From Escherichia phage AV101, in the sequence record OQ973471.1: a stretch of DNA of 64,000 nucleotides. One strand, written 5' to 3'. This document shows positions 3,883 to 36,160 of this stretch, in pieces. A program made the position numbers and the translations under genes. How positions within the stretch are numbered: the first letter of the stretch is position 1; each line of letters starts with the position of its first letter. Below the pieces are notes generated by a model. It ran no database searches and was not told the origin of the DNA. It worked only from the letters and a program-made list of their open reading frames with translations.

Positions 3883-6165
3883 TTATACAACACAGCTGTC
3901 GCACTGAGTTTCCTCAGCCTGCTTCAGCTCTTCGTCTTCCTTGGCGTCCTTGTTTGTGTTGTAATATAGAGTCTTGCCACCCCACATATAGAACGACAGG
4001 ATATCCTGCATCATCTTGGCGCGAGGGATCTTGCTGTCAGGGTACTTCTCTGGGTCATACCACGTGTTGGTACTAATGGACTGGTCAACCCAGCGCTGGA
4101 TGACAGCAGCGGTCTTCAGGTACTCAATACAGTCCAGATCCCACTTGAGGTCATACATCGGTCCAAGGGTCTCAACGTCCGGGACGACCTGCTTATAAGT
4201 GCCGTCCTTGCTACCCTTGATGCTCACCAAGCCCTTCGGTGGCTCAATGCCGTTCGTTGCGTTGAGGACCTGTGAGGAGCTTTCGGTAGGGGCTACTGCC
4301 AGCAGGGTGGCGTTGCGGATACCATAGGTCTTCAGATTATCCTTCAACTCATCCCAATCCAGCCCATATGCCATCCCTTCCGGCTTCTTGCCATTTGGTA
4401 GGATATCAAGTGGAAGCGGCTGAAGGTCGGCGGTGACCTGCCCATTATTGTGGATGGTTCCGCGTTTACACGCCCCGAACTTCATAGCCAGACGGTTGGA
4501 TGCCTTGACCAGATAGAAGTGCAGGTGTGCCATCCACGCATCCAACATTTCAAGACCAGCTGGTGAGCCATAGCCCGTGAAGTTCTTGGCCAAGAAGTGA
4601 GCCACGTTCACGATACCAACACCCAGAGGACGATAGTCTTCAACAGCTTTACGAGCCTGAATCGCTGGATAGTCCTGATATTCCAACAGCATGTCCAGCG
4701 CAGACACCAACACGAACGCCACGTCTTCCATTTCGGTCGGGTCTTCGAATGCTGTCAGGTTGAAGGAAGCCAGGGTGCACAGAGCCACGCGCCCGTTTTC
4801 ATCGTTGTACTGCTCAAACTCACGGGTCGGCAGGGCGATTTCTAAACAAAGATTTGAAGAATAAATCGTGTCTAGGTTGAACGGGCTGTATTCATTCATG
4901 TGATCGACAAATGCGATGTAGATGCGGCCTGTGTCTGAACGCTGGTCTAACAGCATCTGGAACACCTCTTCTGCCTGCAACTTTTTAGCACGAACCAAAC
5001 CAGCATCAGCGGCCTTGATCATGTTCTCATACAGAGTACGGAACTTGTCAACGTCAGCGAAGTATGCTTCATACATTTCGCGGTTGTCTTTCGGGTCGAA
5101 CAGATACAGAGGCTGCTTGGCAACAAGGCGCTCAAACATCACGCGGTTGATCTGAATGCCATAGTCGATACGGCGTTCGCGGTTTTCTTCAGTACCACGG
5201 TTGTTCTTCAGAACAACGACGTCATCGAACTGGTAATGCCACAGAGGGATGTACGCTGTTGCTGCACCACCACGAATGCCGCCCTGAGAGCACGATTTGA
5301 GTGCCCCAGTGAGATACTTGATGAACGGGATCAGGCCTGTGTGAACCATCTCTCCGCCGCGAATAGGACTACCAATCCCACGGATTGCCCCGACGTCGAA
5401 GCCGATACCCGCACGTTTGGACACATAGTCAACGATGGTCTTGGCTGTTGCGTTGATAGAGTTCAGGGTGTCACCAGTTTTGATCAGAACACAAGAGCTG
5501 AACTGGCGGGTTGGTGTACGAACACCAGCCATGATAGGCGTTGGAAGACTGAACTTGCCTGTGCTGGCGTATTCATAGAACTTCTTGACCATATCCAGGC
5601 GGCTTTCTTTGTCCCAGTTGGAGAACAACGCCATGGCGATTGCCATGTACATGACCTGAGGAGTTTCGTAGAAGATCTTGCTATCCTTCTTGGAACGGTC
5701 ACGCAGCAGATACTTCTCTGTCAACTGGCCCATGGCCGCCCAGGTGAAGTTCTTGTCACGTTTGTGGTTGATGACATCGTTCAGCTCGTTGAACTCTTCA
5801 GTCGTGTAAAGGTCGAGGAACTCACGATCATACACGCGTTGCTTGATGTTCTTGACGAAGATATCCAGCAGGTGAGGTGGCTTGTACTGGCCATAGACAG
5901 CCTTGCGCAGATCATATGACTTCAGGCGAGCAGCCACATACTGGTAATTGGGTTTCTCTACGGAGATCAGTGAAGCCGCAGCCTGGATGAGGATATCCTG
6001 AATGCGATCTGTTCTCATGTTGTCGGTGAACTGAATCTTCGATGCAGCGATCACCTCTGACATTGATACGCCAACCAGTCCGTCACATGCGCGGTCTACG
6101 ACTTCGTGTGGTTTCTCAATATCAAAGGGGACAGAAGATCCGTCCCGCTTAATGACGTTAATCAT
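3883..6165 (-). CDS. nrdA: Ribonucleotide reductase large (alpha) subunit, class Ia with N-terminal ATP-cone
   Basis: 760 aa; N-terminal ATP-cone MINVIKRDGSSVPFDIEK, catalytic core motifs (NLCLEI, CTLAS). Confidence 0.9.
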   Translation of the reverse strand: MINVIKRDGSSVPFDIEKPHEVVDRACDGLVGVSMSEVIAASKIQFTDNMRTDRIQDILIQAAASLISVEKPNYQYVAARLKSYDLRKAVYGQYKPPHLLDIFVKNIKQRVYDREFLDLYTTEEFNELNDVINHKRDKNFTWAAMGQLTEKYLLRDRSKKDSKIFYETPQVMYMAIAMALFSNWDKESRLDMVKKFYEYASTGKFSLPTPIMAGVRTPTRQFSSCVLIKTGDTLNSINATAKTIVDYVSKRAGIGFDVGAIRGIGSPIRGGEMVHTGLIPFIKYLTGALKSCSQGGIRGGAATAYIPLWHYQFDDVVVLKNNRGTEENRERRIDYGIQINRVMFERLVAKQPLYLFDPKDNREMYEAYFADVDKFRTLYENMIKAADAGLVRAKKLQAEEVFQMLLDQRSDTGRIYIAFVDHMNEYSPFNLDTIYSSNLCLEIALPTREFEQYNDENGRVALCTLASFNLTAFEDPTEMEDVAFVLVSALDMLLEYQDYPAIQARKAVEDYRPLGVGIVNVAHFLAKNFTGYGSPAGLEMLDAWMAHLHFYLVKASNRLAMKFGACKRGTIHNNGQVTADLQPLPLDILPNGKKPEGMAYGLDWDELKDNLKTYGIRNATLLAVAPTESSSQVLNATNGIEPPKGLVSIKGSKDGTYKQVVPDVETLGPMYDLKWDLDCIEYLKTAAVIQRWVDQSISTNTWYDPEKYPDSKIPRAKMMQDILSFYMWGGKTLYYNTNKDAKEDEELKQAEETQCDSCVV

Positions 6166-6250
6166 AGCGATCCTCGGTTTGTGTTATAAGCAGGTTTTAT
6201 TATACGCCGCCCTCGTAGATTGAAGGCGGCGGGGAGTGTTGGTGAGTTAC

Positions 6251-27393: not shown

Positions 27394-27723
27394 TTAACCC
27401 GAAACTTTATTTTGAAATCCGACAAAGTCCTGGGCAATCCCCCGGCAATACATCAGGTCTTTCTTCGTTTGTGGACTGTTGTCAGCCGCAGTCAGCATCA
27501 TGGGAAGATCCAGCGCATTCTCTATCTGATCAACACTGAACAGATCAAGGCGCTTCAGCTCTCCCTCAAAGTCAGACAGGAGGATAGATGTGTCTTTGTC
27601 ATCTGGGTGGAACTGCTGATACGTCTCCATCCATGCCACACATGTGTTCAGTTTGGACGGTGGCGCAGCGTTTACACACCCGGCTATCAGTACCAACAAG
27701 AGCAGGATTTTACATTTCATCAC
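27394..27723 (-). CDS. Putative lipoprotein (109 aa)
   Basis: Signal peptide with lipobox LIAGC; 4-bp overlap with upstream exported-protein gene. Confidence 0.5.
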   Translation of the reverse strand: MMKCKILLLLVLIAGCVNAAPPSKLNTCVAWMETYQQFHPDDKDTSILLSDFEGELKRLDLFSVDQIENALDLPMMLTAADNSPQTKKDLMYCRGIAQDFVGFQNKVSG

Positions 27724-29838: not shown

Positions 29839-30345
29839 TTATAGAGTAACAAGTGATACGGTAAAAACCATCGTCCCGTCTGTTGCCATTTTTCTTGAAA
29901 CTGGTATGACGCGAGGCTGGCAGAATATCCATTCTTTCTCCATGGACGCCAAGTCCAGCATATCCATTTCTGATTCATCGCCTTTGTTCACAAATTTTTC
30001 TAGAGAACCATAGACATTAAGCCCCTCCGGGAGTCTGTTTCGATGTTTGTAACAAATGCGGGCAACAGCTTTGGTTCCGTACGATTTAGAAAATTTTTTG
30101 GCCACATGCTTCAGTTCACTGAAGCTAAGACAAGAGTCCCATGTCTGGAACATGTCGCCTCGTTCAAACATTATCTCTAAACGCGCAACGTCCTCTTTAG
30201 GCAACCCACGATAAAGTGTGGTCGTCTGTGGTTCGCGCAATTCTTGCACCAGATCGCGGACGGCAGGGGAAACAGTACCGGGGCGCATGATGTGGGACTT
30301 ATCATGGACGAGGTAAAATAAATCTTGAATTTGTTGATCGGTCAT
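29839..30345 (-). CDS. Hypothetical protein (168 aa)
   Basis: Start at conserved leader; hairpin upstream. Confidence 0.45.
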   Translation of the reverse strand: MTDQQIQDLFYLVHDKSHIMRPGTVSPAVRDLVQELREPQTTTLYRGLPKEDVARLEIMFERGDMFQTWDSCLSFSELKHVAKKFSKSYGTKAVARICYKHRNRLPEGLNVYGSLEKFVNKGDESEMDMLDLASMEKEWIFCQPRVIPVSRKMATDGTMVFTVSLVTL

Positions 30346-30369
30346 GGTATAGTTCCTGCATTTCAAATA

Positions 30370-30644: not shown

Positions 30645-30766
30645 GTTATAATCTTACCTTTCAACCCGGTGAACCCATCGTTCGCCAGTTATTGAATAAT
30701 AGGACATTCCTTAGAGGAAGTAAACCCCTAAAAGTAAAAATCCCCAACGTTTGTTGGGGACTTCTG

Positions 30767-31090
30767 TTATTTGCGCAGGGCAACCACGAGTTCAGAGAGT
30801 TCACCCATGGTCGGGTCATCGCCTTTACTACCTAGCCACCCGTCGTCGATTTCGACCTGAAACTCTTCTTCGAGGTCCATTACAATTTCGATAGCGTCCA
30901 GTTCATCACCGCCGAGGTCTTTCTTGGTACGGAGGCCAGCCAGCTTGTCCAGGGCGTCCTCGTTCTGAGATGCCACGTCGTCCAGCAATTTGCGCTTGTC
31001 ATCGTCACGCCACAGATCCATATTCAGATTGTCGGTGGCGTACTGAGCCAGATGACGCATGACTTCAACATATGTTGGTTTACTGCTCAT
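30767..31090 (-). CDS. Acyl-carrier-protein-like acidic protein with Ser-to-Glu substitution at the phosphopantetheine site
   Basis: KKDLGGDELDAIEIVMDLEEEFQVEIDD aligns with E. coli ACP [27 protein letters not shown]; the DSL serine is E here. Confidence 0.55.
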   Translation of the reverse strand: MSSKPTYVEVMRHLAQYATDNLNMDLWRDDDKRKLLDDVASQNEDALDKLAGLRTKKDLGGDELDAIEIVMDLEEEFQVEIDDGWLGSKGDDPTMGELSELVVALRK

Positions 31091-31132
31091 GCTACTTCTC
31101 CCAAAGAAAGGCGGGTTGCCCCGCCCGTTGGA

Positions 31133-33376
31133 TTAGATTTTGATTTCTTTCTCTGTCAGTTCGGCAGTGACCTTGTACTTCACGCCATCCACTTCAACTT
31201 CCATGGTGGACTCTTCCAGGTCGAGGTCGGTGAACCAGCCGTGGCCAGCAACGATACCATACACCACTTTAGACAGTGTCTTGTTCAGGGCACGGACTTC
31301 GGTGATGGCCGCCTTGGCAGCAGCGTCGATCCAGTTTTCGATCAGCTGTTTCTGTAAGGCTTCAGGCACGGCAGTGATCATAGGAGACTTCACGAATGCT
31401 TCGTACTCTTTCAGAGCATTGGCGATGAACAAGTCACCAGCATTGAGTTTCTTGTTCTCGGCAATCTTCTTCTGTACCGCTGCGATAGACGGTAGAGATG
31501 AAGCGCCAGCGATCTTCACGTTCAGCTCACGGCTCATGTAGAAGTCGGTAGACTCTTTGGTCTCAGTCTTCGGTGAGAAGCCGTAATCGCGGATGCCGTA
31601 GGAGGACAGGAACTCGGCCGCCTCAGCGCCGTACTGTACTGCCAGGCCTTTGGCGTTACCCTTACCAACCAGGGCGTCTCGATAGAACTTCAGCACCTTC
31701 TGCTTGCCTTTCAGGGCTTCCAGACGGACATTATCCGCAAAGAACTGAGCAGCACTGATGTTCTTGACCATGGCGCGGTTGACCAGCGGTACGCTTTCCA
31801 GGTTCAGGACAAACACTTCCGGACCACCAAACACGTGGACGCCCATTTCGATCAGCTTTTGTACAACTTCGATATCAGCCTTGAACGGCAGAGTCTTCAC
31901 GTTAATGATACCGTCTTTGACGATGGTGTAGTTGCGCCACTGGAAGGTGTCCAGTTCTTCAGGTAGACCAAACTTCTTCTGTGCGAATTCAGGCACAGCC
32001 ACAGTACCGTGTTGAATTGTACGCACACTGATGTTCGGGCGCTCGGAGTTATAGACCAAATCACTGATTGGCACAACACCCAGATCGTTGGTAGGTTCGA
32101 ACGTCGGGTTCCACTCTTCGTGTTCTGCCAGCTTGAGAGCCAGGGCTTTACGCTCTTCTTTGGACTGAGCATTCGCGATCTGTTCTGCCAGCTTGTCTTC
32201 GGTGTCGTCGGTTTTCTGCACAGTACCGCGCCCGATACTCTTATAGGAGAACATCGGATGCTTGGTAGCAACAGGCACACCAGCTTCAGCCAGGTACGTC
32301 AGCACATCAACGACGGTCGTCGCATCTTCAGCCGGAACCAGGTCATAGTCAATACCGTCAACACCGCGCAGCTGGTCGTCAACGATGGCCTGGGTCAGAT
32401 CGTTCTTGATGTTGGAATAGTCCTGCTTGGTGAAGCAGTTGCTGTACTGTTTGATGAAGCGGACGTCGCCCGTCTTCTTCAGCGCAGCCCAAACCAGATC
32501 TGCGTCCATAGTGTGTACACCGTAGAACGCCAGCACGTATGCCGCCTGGATGTCCGTCAGGCTATCCATCTGGTCGATCATGTTAGGGTTTACAACCCAC
32601 AGCTTGGTGACGCTCTCAGGGATGCTCACATAGCCGACCGGGTGAGAGTCATCGTCCTGTACTGCCAGCACGGTTGCCACACCGTTTTCGACGTAGATGG
32701 CATGGGTGTAGATGACTGGGACATCAACAACCACCTTCGGCACTGAAGACTTCAGTACGTTTTCCAGCTCGGTCTGATATTCGGTCTGGCCTTCGGCAAA
32801 CACGTGAGTCGCGCCAGAGCGCTCGGACATCAGAGCCAGCAGTTCGCGGTTACAGTGCCAGCCGTATTCGATAAATGTAATGTTATCGAAAGCAAATGGC
32901 AGGGTCTCAGCAACCAGTAGAATTTCGTTGGTACGCCAGCAGTTGTCATACCCGTCAGTCATAAATGCCAGGTTGTTGACGTAGCCAGGTTTCTTCAGGT
33001 CACGCGCAGTATCCATCGCCAGTTTCAATGGCTCAACGAAACCAGTACAGCCGGATGGTTGCAGGAAACGGTCGATCAGTTTGTTCAGCTCGCTCAGGTC
33101 AGACGCAGCACTAACCTGGCGGCCAGCGAACACAGTACCAAAGTCGCCTTTGGAGGAGAAATACAGAACGCTCACAGTGTCTTCCGGCTTCACCAGGGAT
33201 GGCAGGTTCTCCTTCAGGTGCTTGCGGACTTCAGGGAGCGCACGGTACATAGAGCCGGAAATGTCTACAACGATTACATGGTTGGACGGAGCAGCAGTCG
33301 CAACCGCATTCTTAAATTCTAATGATTCAATCATTGTTCTCTTCGCCTTGTGCGTAAGGGTTAAGTTCAGACTCAT
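31133..33376 (-). CDS. von Willebrand factor A (vWA) domain protein (about 730-747 aa)
   Basis: N-terminal MIDAS motif VIVVDISGSM; start could be the internal ATG at 33334. Confidence 0.6.
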   Translation of the reverse strand: MSLNLTLTHKAKRTMIESLEFKNAVATAAPSNHVIVVDISGSMYRALPEVRKHLKENLPSLVKPEDTVSVLYFSSKGDFGTVFAGRQVSAASDLSELNKLIDRFLQPSGCTGFVEPLKLAMDTARDLKKPGYVNNLAFMTDGYDNCWRTNEILLVAETLPFAFDNITFIEYGWHCNRELLALMSERSGATHVFAEGQTEYQTELENVLKSSVPKVVVDVPVIYTHAIYVENGVATVLAVQDDDSHPVGYVSIPESVTKLWVVNPNMIDQMDSLTDIQAAYVLAFYGVHTMDADLVWAALKKTGDVRFIKQYSNCFTKQDYSNIKNDLTQAIVDDQLRGVDGIDYDLVPAEDATTVVDVLTYLAEAGVPVATKHPMFSYKSIGRGTVQKTDDTEDKLAEQIANAQSKEERKALALKLAEHEEWNPTFEPTNDLGVVPISDLVYNSERPNISVRTIQHGTVAVPEFAQKKFGLPEELDTFQWRNYTIVKDGIINVKTLPFKADIEVVQKLIEMGVHVFGGPEVFVLNLESVPLVNRAMVKNISAAQFFADNVRLEALKGKQKVLKFYRDALVGKGNAKGLAVQYGAEAAEFLSSYGIRDYGFSPKTETKESTDFYMSRELNVKIAGASSLPSIAAVQKKIAENKKLNAGDLFIANALKEYEAFVKSPMITAVPEALQKQLIENWIDAAAKAAITEVRALNKTLSKVVYGIVAGHGWFTDLDLEESTMEVEVDGVKYKVTAELTEKEIKI

Positions 33377-33644: not shown

Positions 33645-35309
33645 TCAGATTTGTGAGGCCAGTTCTGTCACCAGAGGAGCGGCACGGACACGCGCATCTT
33701 CCAGCGTTTGGGTGTTGAAGAACTCGCCATCACGATACACCAGCTGGTGCTGGTTGTCGGCGTCTTGCACCTGATCAAAGGTGATACCGTCAACCAACAC
33801 TAGTTTACCCTGAGAGTCTTTAATGACTTTAAGGAAACCACGCGCAGACTTTTTAGTCCCGCCTTTATCGGTCTTCGGCTCTTTGAAGATCTCACGGAAT
33901 TCACCGTTCACTTTACCAGCCGTGGCTTTCACTGCTGTGCCAGTACTGTCACGGGTGTTCATCTGGTAGGTGTAGGAACCGATACCGAACACCACGTTGA
34001 TGGAAGCGAAGTTCCGGTCAGCCAGACGGCTAAAGATCTGGTCTTCACGCGACAGGGTGATAGAATCACCGTAGATCAGGCCGATGTGCTCATCCAACAG
34101 GAAGTGCCCAGTTTCAGTCTGGGTGCCACCAAAGATCTCCCACAGGCGCTGGATAGAGCCGACCGCTTCTGAACGGCTGATGATATTACGGTCATCTGCC
34201 ATCAGAGAGTTGATCGTGCCTTCGCCTGTGATCAGGTGATAGGTGTTCGTCTCTTCGATGTGGATGACTTCGGTGCTGCTGGACACGCCGCTGATGTTCA
34301 GCGTAGCGCGGTCTTTGAACCCCTCGATACGGTAGCCGCCGACGATGTGCACAGGGTCACCAGAGTCAGGGCGGATCACGACTTTACCATTGCGCGCCAT
34401 GATAATGTCTTTCAGGCGAGGCAGATAGTCGTCGATGACCTGCCAGTAATCCCACGCATCAGACACGATGCTGACGATGCCATCAGGATACACGTCCTGC
34501 ACCAGGCGGCGGAAGGTTTCGAATTCGCCATCCTTCGTGCCCATACACATCACGGCGTGTTCGGTAGCCGCAACAGAACCAGCAACGACATAATCTTCGT
34601 CGATGTCTGCGCCATAATACTCTTCTACGAAGTCCAGGGCAGGGTTGGTGTCGGTGCCTTTGAAGAACACCAGATGACCGGAACCGGAAGACGCGGCGTC
34701 ATGCCACCCGCTCATACCACGGAAGGAGAAGTCGTGGCCTTGGTAGTCGATGAACCAATGGTCCGGTGATACTCCCGTAGCGAGGGCAGCTTTCACCATC
34801 AGTGCCTTGTAATGCAGAGCGATGGTGGCGTTCGTCATCGGCTTCCAGATCTCAGAGCTGAACACAGTCTCCAGATAGTTGGTCAGCCAGTAGAACTCCG
34901 GCAGGGTATTGAACATCACATACACCGGAACACCATACGGACACATGGTGCCTTCAGGCAGCGCACGGACTTCGATAGGCAGGTAGCCGAGGTCATGCAG
35001 GGCTTCAATATGCTCTGTGCCGACGCGGCCTGGACCCAGGACTTTGTTCATGCGACGGGCATACTTCTTCAGCACCTTGGTCTTCGGGCGCTGGAAGAAT
35101 GCTTCGTCAAACAGTTCGTGGAACCAGGTCATGAAGCCCTGGATACCCCAGACCACCACGCCGTTCTTCGGCAGGTGAGAGTTGAAAAGTTTGTTAGAGC
35201 GCGGAGTTCCGTTGGAGAACACCAGCTCACTGCCTTCAGGGAACTGATAGATGTGCCCCGATTTGTAGAAGTCGATCGCATGGATTGGGTCTAAGTGGCG
35301 CATGCTCAT
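33645..35309 (-). CDS. nadV: Nicotinamide phosphoribosyltransferase (NAMPT/NadV)-family enzyme; possibly a nicotinamide ADP-ribose transferase of an NAD+ reconstitution pathway
   Basis: 554 aa; N-terminal DFYKSGH motif and overall NAMPT-like layout; 4-bp overlap with Prs-like gene. Confidence 0.8.
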   Translation of the reverse strand: MSMRHLDPIHAIDFYKSGHIYQFPEGSELVFSNGTPRSNKLFNSHLPKNGVVVWGIQGFMTWFHELFDEAFFQRPKTKVLKKYARRMNKVLGPGRVGTEHIEALHDLGYLPIEVRALPEGTMCPYGVPVYVMFNTLPEFYWLTNYLETVFSSEIWKPMTNATIALHYKALMVKAALATGVSPDHWFIDYQGHDFSFRGMSGWHDAASSGSGHLVFFKGTDTNPALDFVEEYYGADIDEDYVVAGSVAATEHAVMCMGTKDGEFETFRRLVQDVYPDGIVSIVSDAWDYWQVIDDYLPRLKDIIMARNGKVVIRPDSGDPVHIVGGYRIEGFKDRATLNISGVSSSTEVIHIEETNTYHLITGEGTINSLMADDRNIISRSEAVGSIQRLWEIFGGTQTETGHFLLDEHIGLIYGDSITLSREDQIFSRLADRNFASINVVFGIGSYTYQMNTRDSTGTAVKATAGKVNGEFREIFKEPKTDKGGTKKSARGFLKVIKDSQGKLVLVDGITFDQVQDADNQHQLVYRDGEFFNTQTLEDARVRAAPLVTELASQI

Positions 35310-36160
35310 TTTACACGTCCTGTATTTTCAGTTTTGAAAGGAAGCCCGTCGGCGGTGATGTTCTCCCACCAGACAGTGTCGGCATACACAGCATCATAGA
35401 TCCCGTCGAAAACAGAGAGACCTTTGCTGAAGATGCCATGGGTAACGAAGAGCGTCATGTGCTTAGGCTTGTGCTTCTGAAGCTCTTTGCCTAACTCAAC
35501 GAACGTGCGCCCACCGTCGCAGATATCATCGACCACCACCAGATAGCGGTCTTTGATCAGTTCAGGGTTTGTAACACTCACCCCAATGATCTCACCAGTC
35601 TTGGTATCGCGGTTCTTATGGCCGTAGACAACAGGAACACCGTCCAACGATAGGCTGAGGGCTTCGGTCTTCTTAGTCGCGCCGCCGTCAGGAGCTACCA
35701 ACACAGCGTTGTTCCCACGGATGAACCAGCCCAGATACTGACGCACGATGTAATCTTGCGGGACAACATGAACGTTGTTGATCAGAGAAGACACAACATG
35801 GCTGTGAGGATCTTTGATTACCACGCGGTCAAAGTTCATGCTATTGATGAATTCAGCCGCCCACTTCACAGACAGAGGCTCACCGAAGTCACAATGGCGG
35901 TCCTGGCGAGCATACGGGAAGTAAGGGATATACGCATGGAATGTCGTCAGACGGTCCACGTTACTCAGACCACGAACGGCGTTTACCAGAAGCGCCAGCT
36001 CAATGAAGTCGGCTGATGATTTGATGTGAGCATCAATCACCACGTTCTGAACGTGGCCGATAGGGATACCAGACTTTTGGATCTTGATATGTTCCTCACC
36101 ACCTGGGAAGGTGAAGTGTTTGTAGAACACATCTTGGTCGTTCAATTTCAAACGAAACAT
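35306..36160 (-). CDS. prs: Ribose-phosphate pyrophosphokinase (Prs)-family enzyme; possibly an ADP-ribose pyrophosphokinase
   Basis: 284 aa; YFPYARQDR, DGGATKKT and VVVDDICDGGRT motifs of the Prs/PRTase fold. Confidence 0.8.
   Translation of the reverse strand: MFRLKLNDQDVFYKHFTFPGGEEHIKIQKSGIPIGHVQNVVIDAHIKSSADFIELALLVNAVRGLSNVDRLTTFHAYIPYFPYARQDRHCDFGEPLSVKWAAEFINSMNFDRVVIKDPHSHVVSSLINNVHVVPQDYIVRQYLGWFIRGNNAVLVAPDGGATKKTEALSLSLDGVPVVYGHKNRDTKTGEIIGVSVTNPELIKDRYLVVVDDICDGGRTFVELGKELQKHKPKHMTLFVTHGIFSKGLSVFDGIYDAVYADTVWWENITADGLPFKTENTGRVK

Follow-up and report, generated by a model that had tools for sequence, protein, structure and literature searches.

The closest described systems are acyl carrier proteins (ACPs) that act as protein ligands without a cofactor. 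The mitochondrial ACP (mACP) of Plasmodium and other apicomplexans has no phosphopantetheine group and stabilises Isd11-Nfs1 (PMC8547962). In Escherichia coli, apo-ACP inhibits glycerol-3-phosphate acyltransferase (PlsB) more than holo-ACP does (review PMC3896788), while the ATPase of MukB is stimulated equally by apo- and holo-AcpP (PMC8602292). Here we describe an ACP-like protein of Escherichia phage AV101 (sequence record OQ973471.1) in which the serine that would carry the phosphopantetheine arm is replaced by glutamate. Its gene lies on the minus strand of the window, i.e., the whole 64,000-nucleotide stretch of phage DNA that was analysed. The gene and its parts are as follows:

30767-31090, minus strand: coding sequence of the serine-less ACP-like protein, 107 aa, stop codon included (open reading frame (ORF) list, PHROG 4154, Pfam PP-binding, and the ratio of nonsynonymous to synonymous substitution rates, dN/dS)
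30902-30904, minus strand: codon GAA for Glu63, at the position of E. coli ACP Ser36 (the phosphopantetheine site; from the sequence)
30860-30907, minus strand: residues 62-77, equivalent of ACP helix II (the recognition helix), with D62, L64, D65, I67, E68, M71, E74, E75, E76 and F77 (helix 63-77 in the AlphaFold2 (AF2) model)
31007-31090, minus strand: residues 1-28, N-terminal extension with a conserved helix (7-21), absent from canonical ACPs (hhalign, AF2)
30809-30838, minus strand: residues 85-94 (W-x-G-x-x-x-D-D-P-T), family-specific loop in place of the ACP helix II-IV connection (57-sequence alignment)

The phage protein is like bacterial AcpP (PF00550; TIGR00517) in its helix II, where DLGGDELDAIEIVMDLEEEF (residues 58-77) has 15 of its 20 residues in common with the aligned stretch 31-50 of E. 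coli ACP, in its acidic docking residues, and in its charge and isoelectric point (pI). It differs from AcpP in three respects: i) every member of the phage family has Glu or Asp in place of Ser36; ii) the family has ~28 extra N-terminal residues, and its W-G...DDPT loop is three residues longer; iii) the protein is encoded by a virulent phage without annotated genes for fatty acid synthesis (FAS) or a phosphopantetheinyl transferase (PPTase), as judged from the annotation of its relative Shigella phage MK-13.

With Plasmodium mACP it shares an ACP fold that lacks the attachment serine and is kept under selection (phage dN/dS 0.17), a likeness of mechanism only: mACP is eukaryotic and organellar and has a LYR-motif partner, of which none is known in these phages, and the two proteins show no sign of common descent past the ACP superfamily. 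The residue that replaces serine in Plasmodium mACP is not known to be acidic. Growth arrest of E. coli by apo-ACP through PlsB (PMC3896788) is a case of unmodified ACP blocking an enzyme, as is proposed here for the phage protein; there, however, the effect comes from overproduced host ACP, whereas PlsB is a candidate target of the phage protein. The AcpP-MukB pair (PMC8602292) is comparable in that apo- and holo-ACP are bound equally, so that a serine-less mimic could in principle fill the site, although the phage protein carries extra elements that AcpP does not; a phage protein that targets MukBEF has already been described (bioRxiv 10.1101/2024.10.02.616235). Other phage ACPs (PHROG 5934 and relatives) are likewise small ACP-fold proteins, some of them serine-less, but they lack the N-terminal helix and are distant from the present family (E ~1e-9 to the family profile). 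By analogy, the phage protein appears to work most like the cofactor-less ACPs that act as protein ligands.

ACP likeness and the residue at the attachment site

A preliminary description of the gene, drawn from the sequence alone, had called its product an unmodifiable ACP look-alike, and had proposed a hidden Markov model (HMM) search and a structure prediction as checks. The ORF is as described there, with the start codon ATG at 31090 and the stop codon TAA at 30769-30767, and the helix-II match which it quoted was reproduced. In the HMM search, Pfam PP-binding (PF00550) scored 23.8 bits, above the gathering cut-off of 20.8, while PF14573 stayed under threshold (25.6 vs 32 bits). PHROG 4154 ("acyl carrier protein") was matched from end to end (E = 1.1e-56, residues 1-107 against positions 1-108 of 108), and ACPs were the sole phmmer matches in the PDB (best E = 2e-5). 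When a profile of 28 family members was aligned via hhalign with a profile of 31 true ACPs, the probability was 98.1% (E = 7e-14), the span being limited to family residues 30-103 and ACP residues 8-76. On the other hand, the AcpP equivalog model (TIGR00517 / PRK00982) gave 33.6 bits against a cut-off of 70.45, with residues 54-83 as the sole match.

The structure prediction agreed with the profile searches. An AF2 model built on a 56-sequence alignment reached a predicted local distance difference test (pLDDT) score of 86.8 and a predicted template modelling (TM) score of 0.77; it was used in place of the model from the single sequence, which was unusable (pLDDT 48). Helices were predicted at residues 7-21, 29-40, 44-51, 63-77, 83-88 and 95-105, and the four-helix carrier-protein fold was present. 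All of the top 50 Foldseek matches of the model in the PDB were ACPs or peptidyl carrier proteins, and an independent BFVD model of the homologue from phage ViI superposed on it with a TM-score of 0.88-0.90. As modelled, the core of the phage protein is an ACP fold, and the outcome that the preliminary description had named as adverse, a prediction without that fold, did not occur.

At the attachment site, the D-S-L motif of ACPs reads D-E-L in the phage protein, via Glu63. This substitution, on which the preliminary description had built its case, is no peculiarity of AV101. In 57 family sequences reaching down to ~35% identity (51 close members plus six remote representatives from an exhaustive profile search, E = 1e-25 to 1e-11), position 63 is Glu in 49, Asp in 8 and Ser in none; the codons found there in relatives are GAA, GAG or GAT, and the ViI/Kuttervirus type, with Asp at position 63, reads GGDDLD. 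Homologues that keep the serine, the second adverse outcome, were therefore not encountered in the family. Judged from this alignment, the loss of serine is an ancient and fixed family trait.

The defining feature of functional ACPs, the canonical serine of D-S-L at the N-terminus of helix II, is lacking in all 57 sequences, and by this measure the phage protein is not one of them. Phosphopantetheinylation of the canonical site by host AcpS should be impossible, and hence no acylation would follow. Could the protein nevertheless be a true carrier, for whose loading some residue or chemistry other than the canonical one is used? It is indeed named "acyl carrier protein" in public records and in PHROG 4154, and the Pfam PP-binding threshold is passed. 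However, not only is the canonical serine absent, but there is no Ser at all in residues 42-87, i.e., near the helix II N-terminus, and no Cys in the whole protein. The remaining serines are variable: Ser3 and Ser88 vary in the family alignment, and Ser41, Ser88 and Ser99 are substituted in most of the 57 sequences. The scores are moreover far under the NCBIfam ACP cut-offs, and the annotation of the complete MK-13 genome (211 features) has no PPTase, ketosynthase, acyltransferase or other acyl-ACP enzyme, although hypothetical genes are numerous in it and enzymes of the host could in principle take their place. We thus regard a non-canonical carrier as very improbable. Since the canonical serine is absent throughout the family, the label "acyl carrier protein / auxiliary metabolic gene" misstates the function.

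That label is widespread. The window belongs to a phage of the Ackermannviridae: the 3.6 kb around the gene share 96% identity with Escherichia phage vB_EcoM-ZQ1 and 91% with MK-13 (genus Agtrevirus), and tblastn of the protein found 271 phage records, 270 of them at full length, in which the gene is annotated as either "acyl carrier protein" or "hypothetical protein". These phages infect Salmonella, Klebsiella, Escherichia, Dickeya, Shigella, Enterobacter and Serratia, have genomes of 150-160 kb and carry Ackermannviridae-like names. A tblastn search of isolates with two remote members (P0060 and P0063) returned the same Ackermannviridae-type record set, while context scans for P0057-P0063 revealed one unrelated phage ACP-like protein (viral contigs) and two exported bacterial ACP-like proteins (metagenome contigs). 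In genome papers and a 2024 family review the gene either appears under the name "acyl carrier protein" or goes unmentioned, and in the literature we found no paper that notes the loss of serine or gives a function for the gene. A link to thymidine hypermodification (PhiW-14/SP-15 paper) was considered and rejected, as the mention concerns another gene.

Docking surface, added elements and selection

The preliminary description had further suggested that the protein could bind ACP partners as a decoy or inhibitor, or act as a general acidic mimic. The residues relevant to the former are D62, L64, D65, I67, E68, M71, E74 and D83, the equivalents of E. coli ACP D35, L37, D38, V40, E41, M44, E47 and D56, which form the helix-II recognition surface. 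Each of the eight is kept in 56-57 of the 57 sequences; D83 (= ACP D56), located just beyond the helix-II span, is kept in 57/57. In ACP, D35 and D38 are experimentally needed for IscS binding (PMC13343975). As far as residue conservation can tell, the acidic helix-II docking surface of a FAS-type ACP is wholly retained, and these invariant residues are consistent with the decoy idea, without being proof of it.

Two elements have been added in this family. At the N-terminus, the 28-sequence family alignment (A2) shows no variation at Y7, V10, L14, A18, N21 and L22, and helix 7-21 is modelled at a pLDDT of ~90. The N-terminal extension that had been described thus exists, and contains this conserved helix, but its length of 40 residues was not upheld: hhalign and phmmer both put the extra part at the N-terminus, with ~28 residues according to hhalign, and an alternative MAFFT placement equates helix 7-21 with the canonical helix I and turns the extra residues into a loop-I insertion. 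The second element is the W-G...DDPT loop, which has no E. coli ACP counterpart in the alignment and is nearly invariant in the 57-sequence set (W85 56/57, G87 55/56, D91 57/57, D92 55/57, P93 57/57 and T94 55/57).

The median of the pairwise dN/dS values was 0.17 for the whole gene; it was lower in residues 54-107 (0.12) and higher in the variable stretch 23-53 (0.35). The gene is not decaying but is maintained by purifying selection. One might take it for a decaying, functionless remnant of a captured host acpP, as the loss of the catalytic serine is what is expected of a pseudogenised carrier, but the selection analysis already contradicts this (dN/dS 0.12-0.17 across lineages with saturated synonymous sites). 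Moreover, the gene is kept in ~270 genomes of several genera, its Shine-Dalgarno sequence and terminator are intact, and new conserved elements have been gained. A remnant is therefore extremely unlikely.

As for charge, the protein has 27 Asp+Glu and 13 Lys+Arg, which gives a net charge of -14 and a pI of 4.24; the values for E. coli ACP are -15 and 4.05. Phage acidic mimics of similar size are well known. The protein could in principle be such a general mimic of DNA or another polyanion, sequestering a host nucleic-acid-binding protein, for example a restriction or defence nuclease or an SMC (structural maintenance of chromosomes) complex, in the manner of Ocr or T7 gp5.9. Besides the net charge and pI, the position of this small gene among replication and metabolism genes, and not among structural genes, fits this idea, and inhibition of MukBEF by a viral DNA mimic is reported in a preprint (bioRxiv 10.1101/2024.10.02.616235). 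Nevertheless, the likeness to DNA mimics of the Ocr/gp5.9/Arn type is one of bulk charge only, and this charge is no higher than that of an ordinary ACP, which points to inheritance from the fold. Conservation falls on the ACP docking residues and on the hydrophobic L64, I67 and M71, and no phosphate-like charge pattern is what has been conserved; a search of the protein against the PADLOC models gave no meaningful match. On balance, general acidic mimicry is improbable.

A host docking site or a phage-encoded partner

The reading that we favour, tentatively and with a probability of roughly 0.42, is that of a non-acylatable pseudo-ACP which would occupy the site at which ACP docks on some host protein, its target and effect being proposals. 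Such a protein would act purely by protein-protein binding and not as a fatty-acid carrier. During infection, it would be a non-turnover, permanently apo-ACP-like ligand in the docking site; the host could not turn this ligand into a substrate, and the occupied host protein would be blocked or hijacked. AcpS binds apo-ACP by definition. Together with PlsB and MukB it would be a prime candidate target, these proteins being reported to bind ACP that lacks the prosthetic group. The carboxylate of Glu63 would be located where the phosphodiester of holo-ACP would be, and may add affinity for a basic patch; alternatively, the carboxylate of residue 63 may simply cap helix II. The N-terminal helix and the DDPT loop would give target specificity, and might also supply the higher affinity needed against the abundant host ACP. 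Also counted in favour of a pseudo-ACP was that serine-less ACP-like proteins (D-E-L, D-N-L) recur elsewhere, in a Vibrio phage as well as in unrelated phage contigs; they are described in the last section.

Several lines of evidence weigh against it: i) The host has 86-358 x 10^3 copies of ACP per cell (PMC8602292), and with AcpP at ~10^5 copies per cell a simple competitive decoy is disfavoured, as very high expression or a much higher affinity would be needed; ii) IscS binding is lost with the ACP variant S36T (PMC13343975) and SpoT does not bind apo-ACP (PMC3896788), so that, with these two partners requiring the prosthetic group or Ser36, the range of targets would be narrower than the ACP interactome; iii) An acidic residue such as Glu or Asp is structurally conservative where a helix begins, and does not require phosphate mimicry; iv) Exported ACP-like proteins of bacteria often carry the same substitution, which may be a generic result of lost carrier function; its recurrence there speaks, at least partly, for a generic structural cause; v) A dedicated phage-encoded partner could account just as well for the invariance of the N-terminal helix and the DDPT loop.

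The last point directs attention to the genes around the ACP-like gene, in particular to its large neighbour with a von Willebrand factor A (vWA) domain. The features of this region are:

31133-33376, minus strand: context neighbour, a protein of 747 aa that has a vWA domain at its N-terminus and a DxSxS motif (Pfam VWA, PHROG 2426)
31095-31126, minus strand: hairpin in the upstream intergenic gap (31109-31126) and its U-rich tail, after which comes the Shine-Dalgarno sequence GGGAGAAG (31095-31102); terminator-like site in a scan
30731-30765, minus strand: downstream hairpin and U-run, likely an intrinsic terminator (fold energy vs shuffles)

The ACP-like gene begins 42 nt downstream of the vWA gene, in agreement with the neighbourhood given in the preliminary description, and has a Shine-Dalgarno sequence (GGGAG) 7 nt upstream of its ATG. 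The upstream hairpin between the two genes is weak (-18.3 kcal/mol, z = -1.8 vs shuffles), while none of 200 shuffles was as stable as the downstream hairpin that follows the stop codon (-20.8 kcal/mol, z = -4.1). The vWA protein scores 26.3 bits with Pfam VWA, contains the DxSxS motif (VVDISGSM) and falls in PHROG 2426, of unknown function; some records call it a "minor tail protein". For the ~550 residues after the vWA domain there was no match in Pfam or the PDB, and phmmer of the protein against the PDB gave a weak vWA match and nothing more. The vWA gene occurs in 503 phage records, from Ackermannviridae, T4-like Slopekvirus (49% identity), Bacillus Takahashivirus and Rhizobium phages.

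Mitochondrial complexes include subunits with an ACP fold, and vWA sites of the DxSxS type bind ligand carboxylates. In a similar way, the ACP-like protein might belong to a phage-encoded protein as its structural or regulatory subunit, for example to the vWA protein, whose DxSxS metal site could coordinate the acidic residue 63. Co-evolution with a dedicated partner is suggested by the invariant helix 7-21, W85, G87 and D91-T94. The gene order PRPP synthetase (Prs), NAMPT, small ORF, vWA and ACP-like is kept in the most divergent contig examined (49% identity), and the vWA protein does have a DxSxS motif. Plasmodium mACP offers a precedent as a cofactor-independent subunit of Isd11-Nfs1 (PMC8547962), and a phage-internal subunit would sidestep the competition with abundant host ACP.

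The distribution of the vWA gene argues otherwise. An HMM scan of the flanks found no ACP-like gene beside the vWA gene in KP27 (Slopekvirus, 49% identity) or in Bacillus phage Internexus, nor do the more distant vWA homologues of Bacillus and Rhizobium phages have an ACP-like neighbour; with 503 records for the vWA gene against ~270 for the ACP-like gene, vWA can do without it. The vWA protein as an obligate partner was ruled out by the KP27 and Internexus homologues. To judge from these comparisons, the vWA protein does not depend on the ACP-like protein, and since its homologues in other phage families have no such neighbour, the adjacency of the two genes carries little weight. Furthermore, the other phage serine-less ACP-like proteins are not encoded beside a vWA gene and have no common neighbour, a terminator-like hairpin, albeit weak (z = -1.8), lies between the two genes, and the retention of AcpP-type docking residues would be unexpected for a newly evolved interface. 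A phage-encoded partner, though the main rival to the reading that we favour, is therefore rather unlikely, and contact between Glu63 and the vWA metal site is a low-probability proposal.

Further genes of the region were noted in passing. Two genes upstream of vWA, at window positions 33645-36160 on the minus strand, are overlapping genes for NAMPT (554 aa) and a ribose-phosphate pyrophosphokinase (284 aa), an NAD+ salvage pair; NAD+ salvage genes of the NAMPT/Prs kind have been suggested in a review to counter NAD-depleting defences. At 29839-30366 on the minus strand is a 175-aa protein that matches PHROG 832 "RNA polymerase ADP-ribosylase" (E = 2.5e-15) over ~160 positions (1265-1425 of 1480). 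Its RefSeq relatives share that name, but the label may over-reach, as the protein is far shorter than the profile. At 27394-27723, also on the minus strand, is an ORF of 109 aa that has a lipoprotein-type signal at its start (MMKCKILLLLVLIAGC) and is, by gene order alone, the apparent counterpart of the MK-13 "Rz-like spanin".

Other serine-less ACP-like proteins and their meaning

ACP-like proteins that read D-E-L at the attachment site were found in three unrelated phage-like contigs: L020 (6001-6297), L022 (1825-2085) and L029 (~5905-6192). The profile search and patterns used were biased toward an acidic residue at this site, and speak to recurrence, not to frequency. Contig L020 also carries ThyX and an HNH gene, whereas L029 is a high-GC contig; their ACP-like proteins, the two that were tested, both belong to PHROG 5934 "acyl carrier protein". 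No neighbouring gene shared among the three contigs was found. The ACP of a Manatee Spring siphovirus, by contrast, keeps the serine (D-S-F). In Vibrio phage 277E43-1 (L032 2480-3013, P0098), a protein of 177 aa annotated as hypothetical has an ACP-like N-terminal domain with D-N-L and a C-terminal extension of ~100 aa.

Outside phages, many bacterial ACP-like proteins with a signal peptide, lipobox or membrane anchor read D-E-L or D-D-L for D-S-L (P0054, P0110, P0111, P0132, P0136, P0137, P0148, P0155, P0162, P0190, P0279 and P0282, as well as L030 5659-6153 and L031 3-899), and one such example is annotated "acyl carrier protein" in Streptomyces bacillaris. From their sequences, the members with a signal peptide or lipobox look like an exported, cofactor-less group. 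The gene context of the Streptomyces signal-peptide protein P0282 held nothing informative.

The serine-less pseudo-ACPs may form a recurrent and so far unrecognised class of phage host-takeover proteins, in which an unreactive copy of the recognition helix of ACP, with a carboxylate in place of the phosphopantetheine phosphate, would lock a host machine that accepts apo-ACP, such as the MukBEF condensin or the PlsB step of lipid synthesis. We consider so broad a generalisation possible but somewhat doubtful. If true, the Ackermannviridae family would be the first cultivable and genetically tractable example of pseudo-ACP takeover proteins.

The finding corrects a widespread annotation. The PHROGs class "auxiliary metabolic gene" implies fatty-acid or polyketide chemistry, which the missing serine makes untenable, and the gene is present in ~270 sequenced Ackermannviridae phages, many of which are under development as biocontrol agents against Salmonella, E. 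coli O157, Klebsiella and Dickeya. Should the protein be an ACP mimic, it would represent a new viral means of disturbing a hub protein that is central to bacterial physiology, and a natural probe for those ACP partners that are independent of the prosthetic group.
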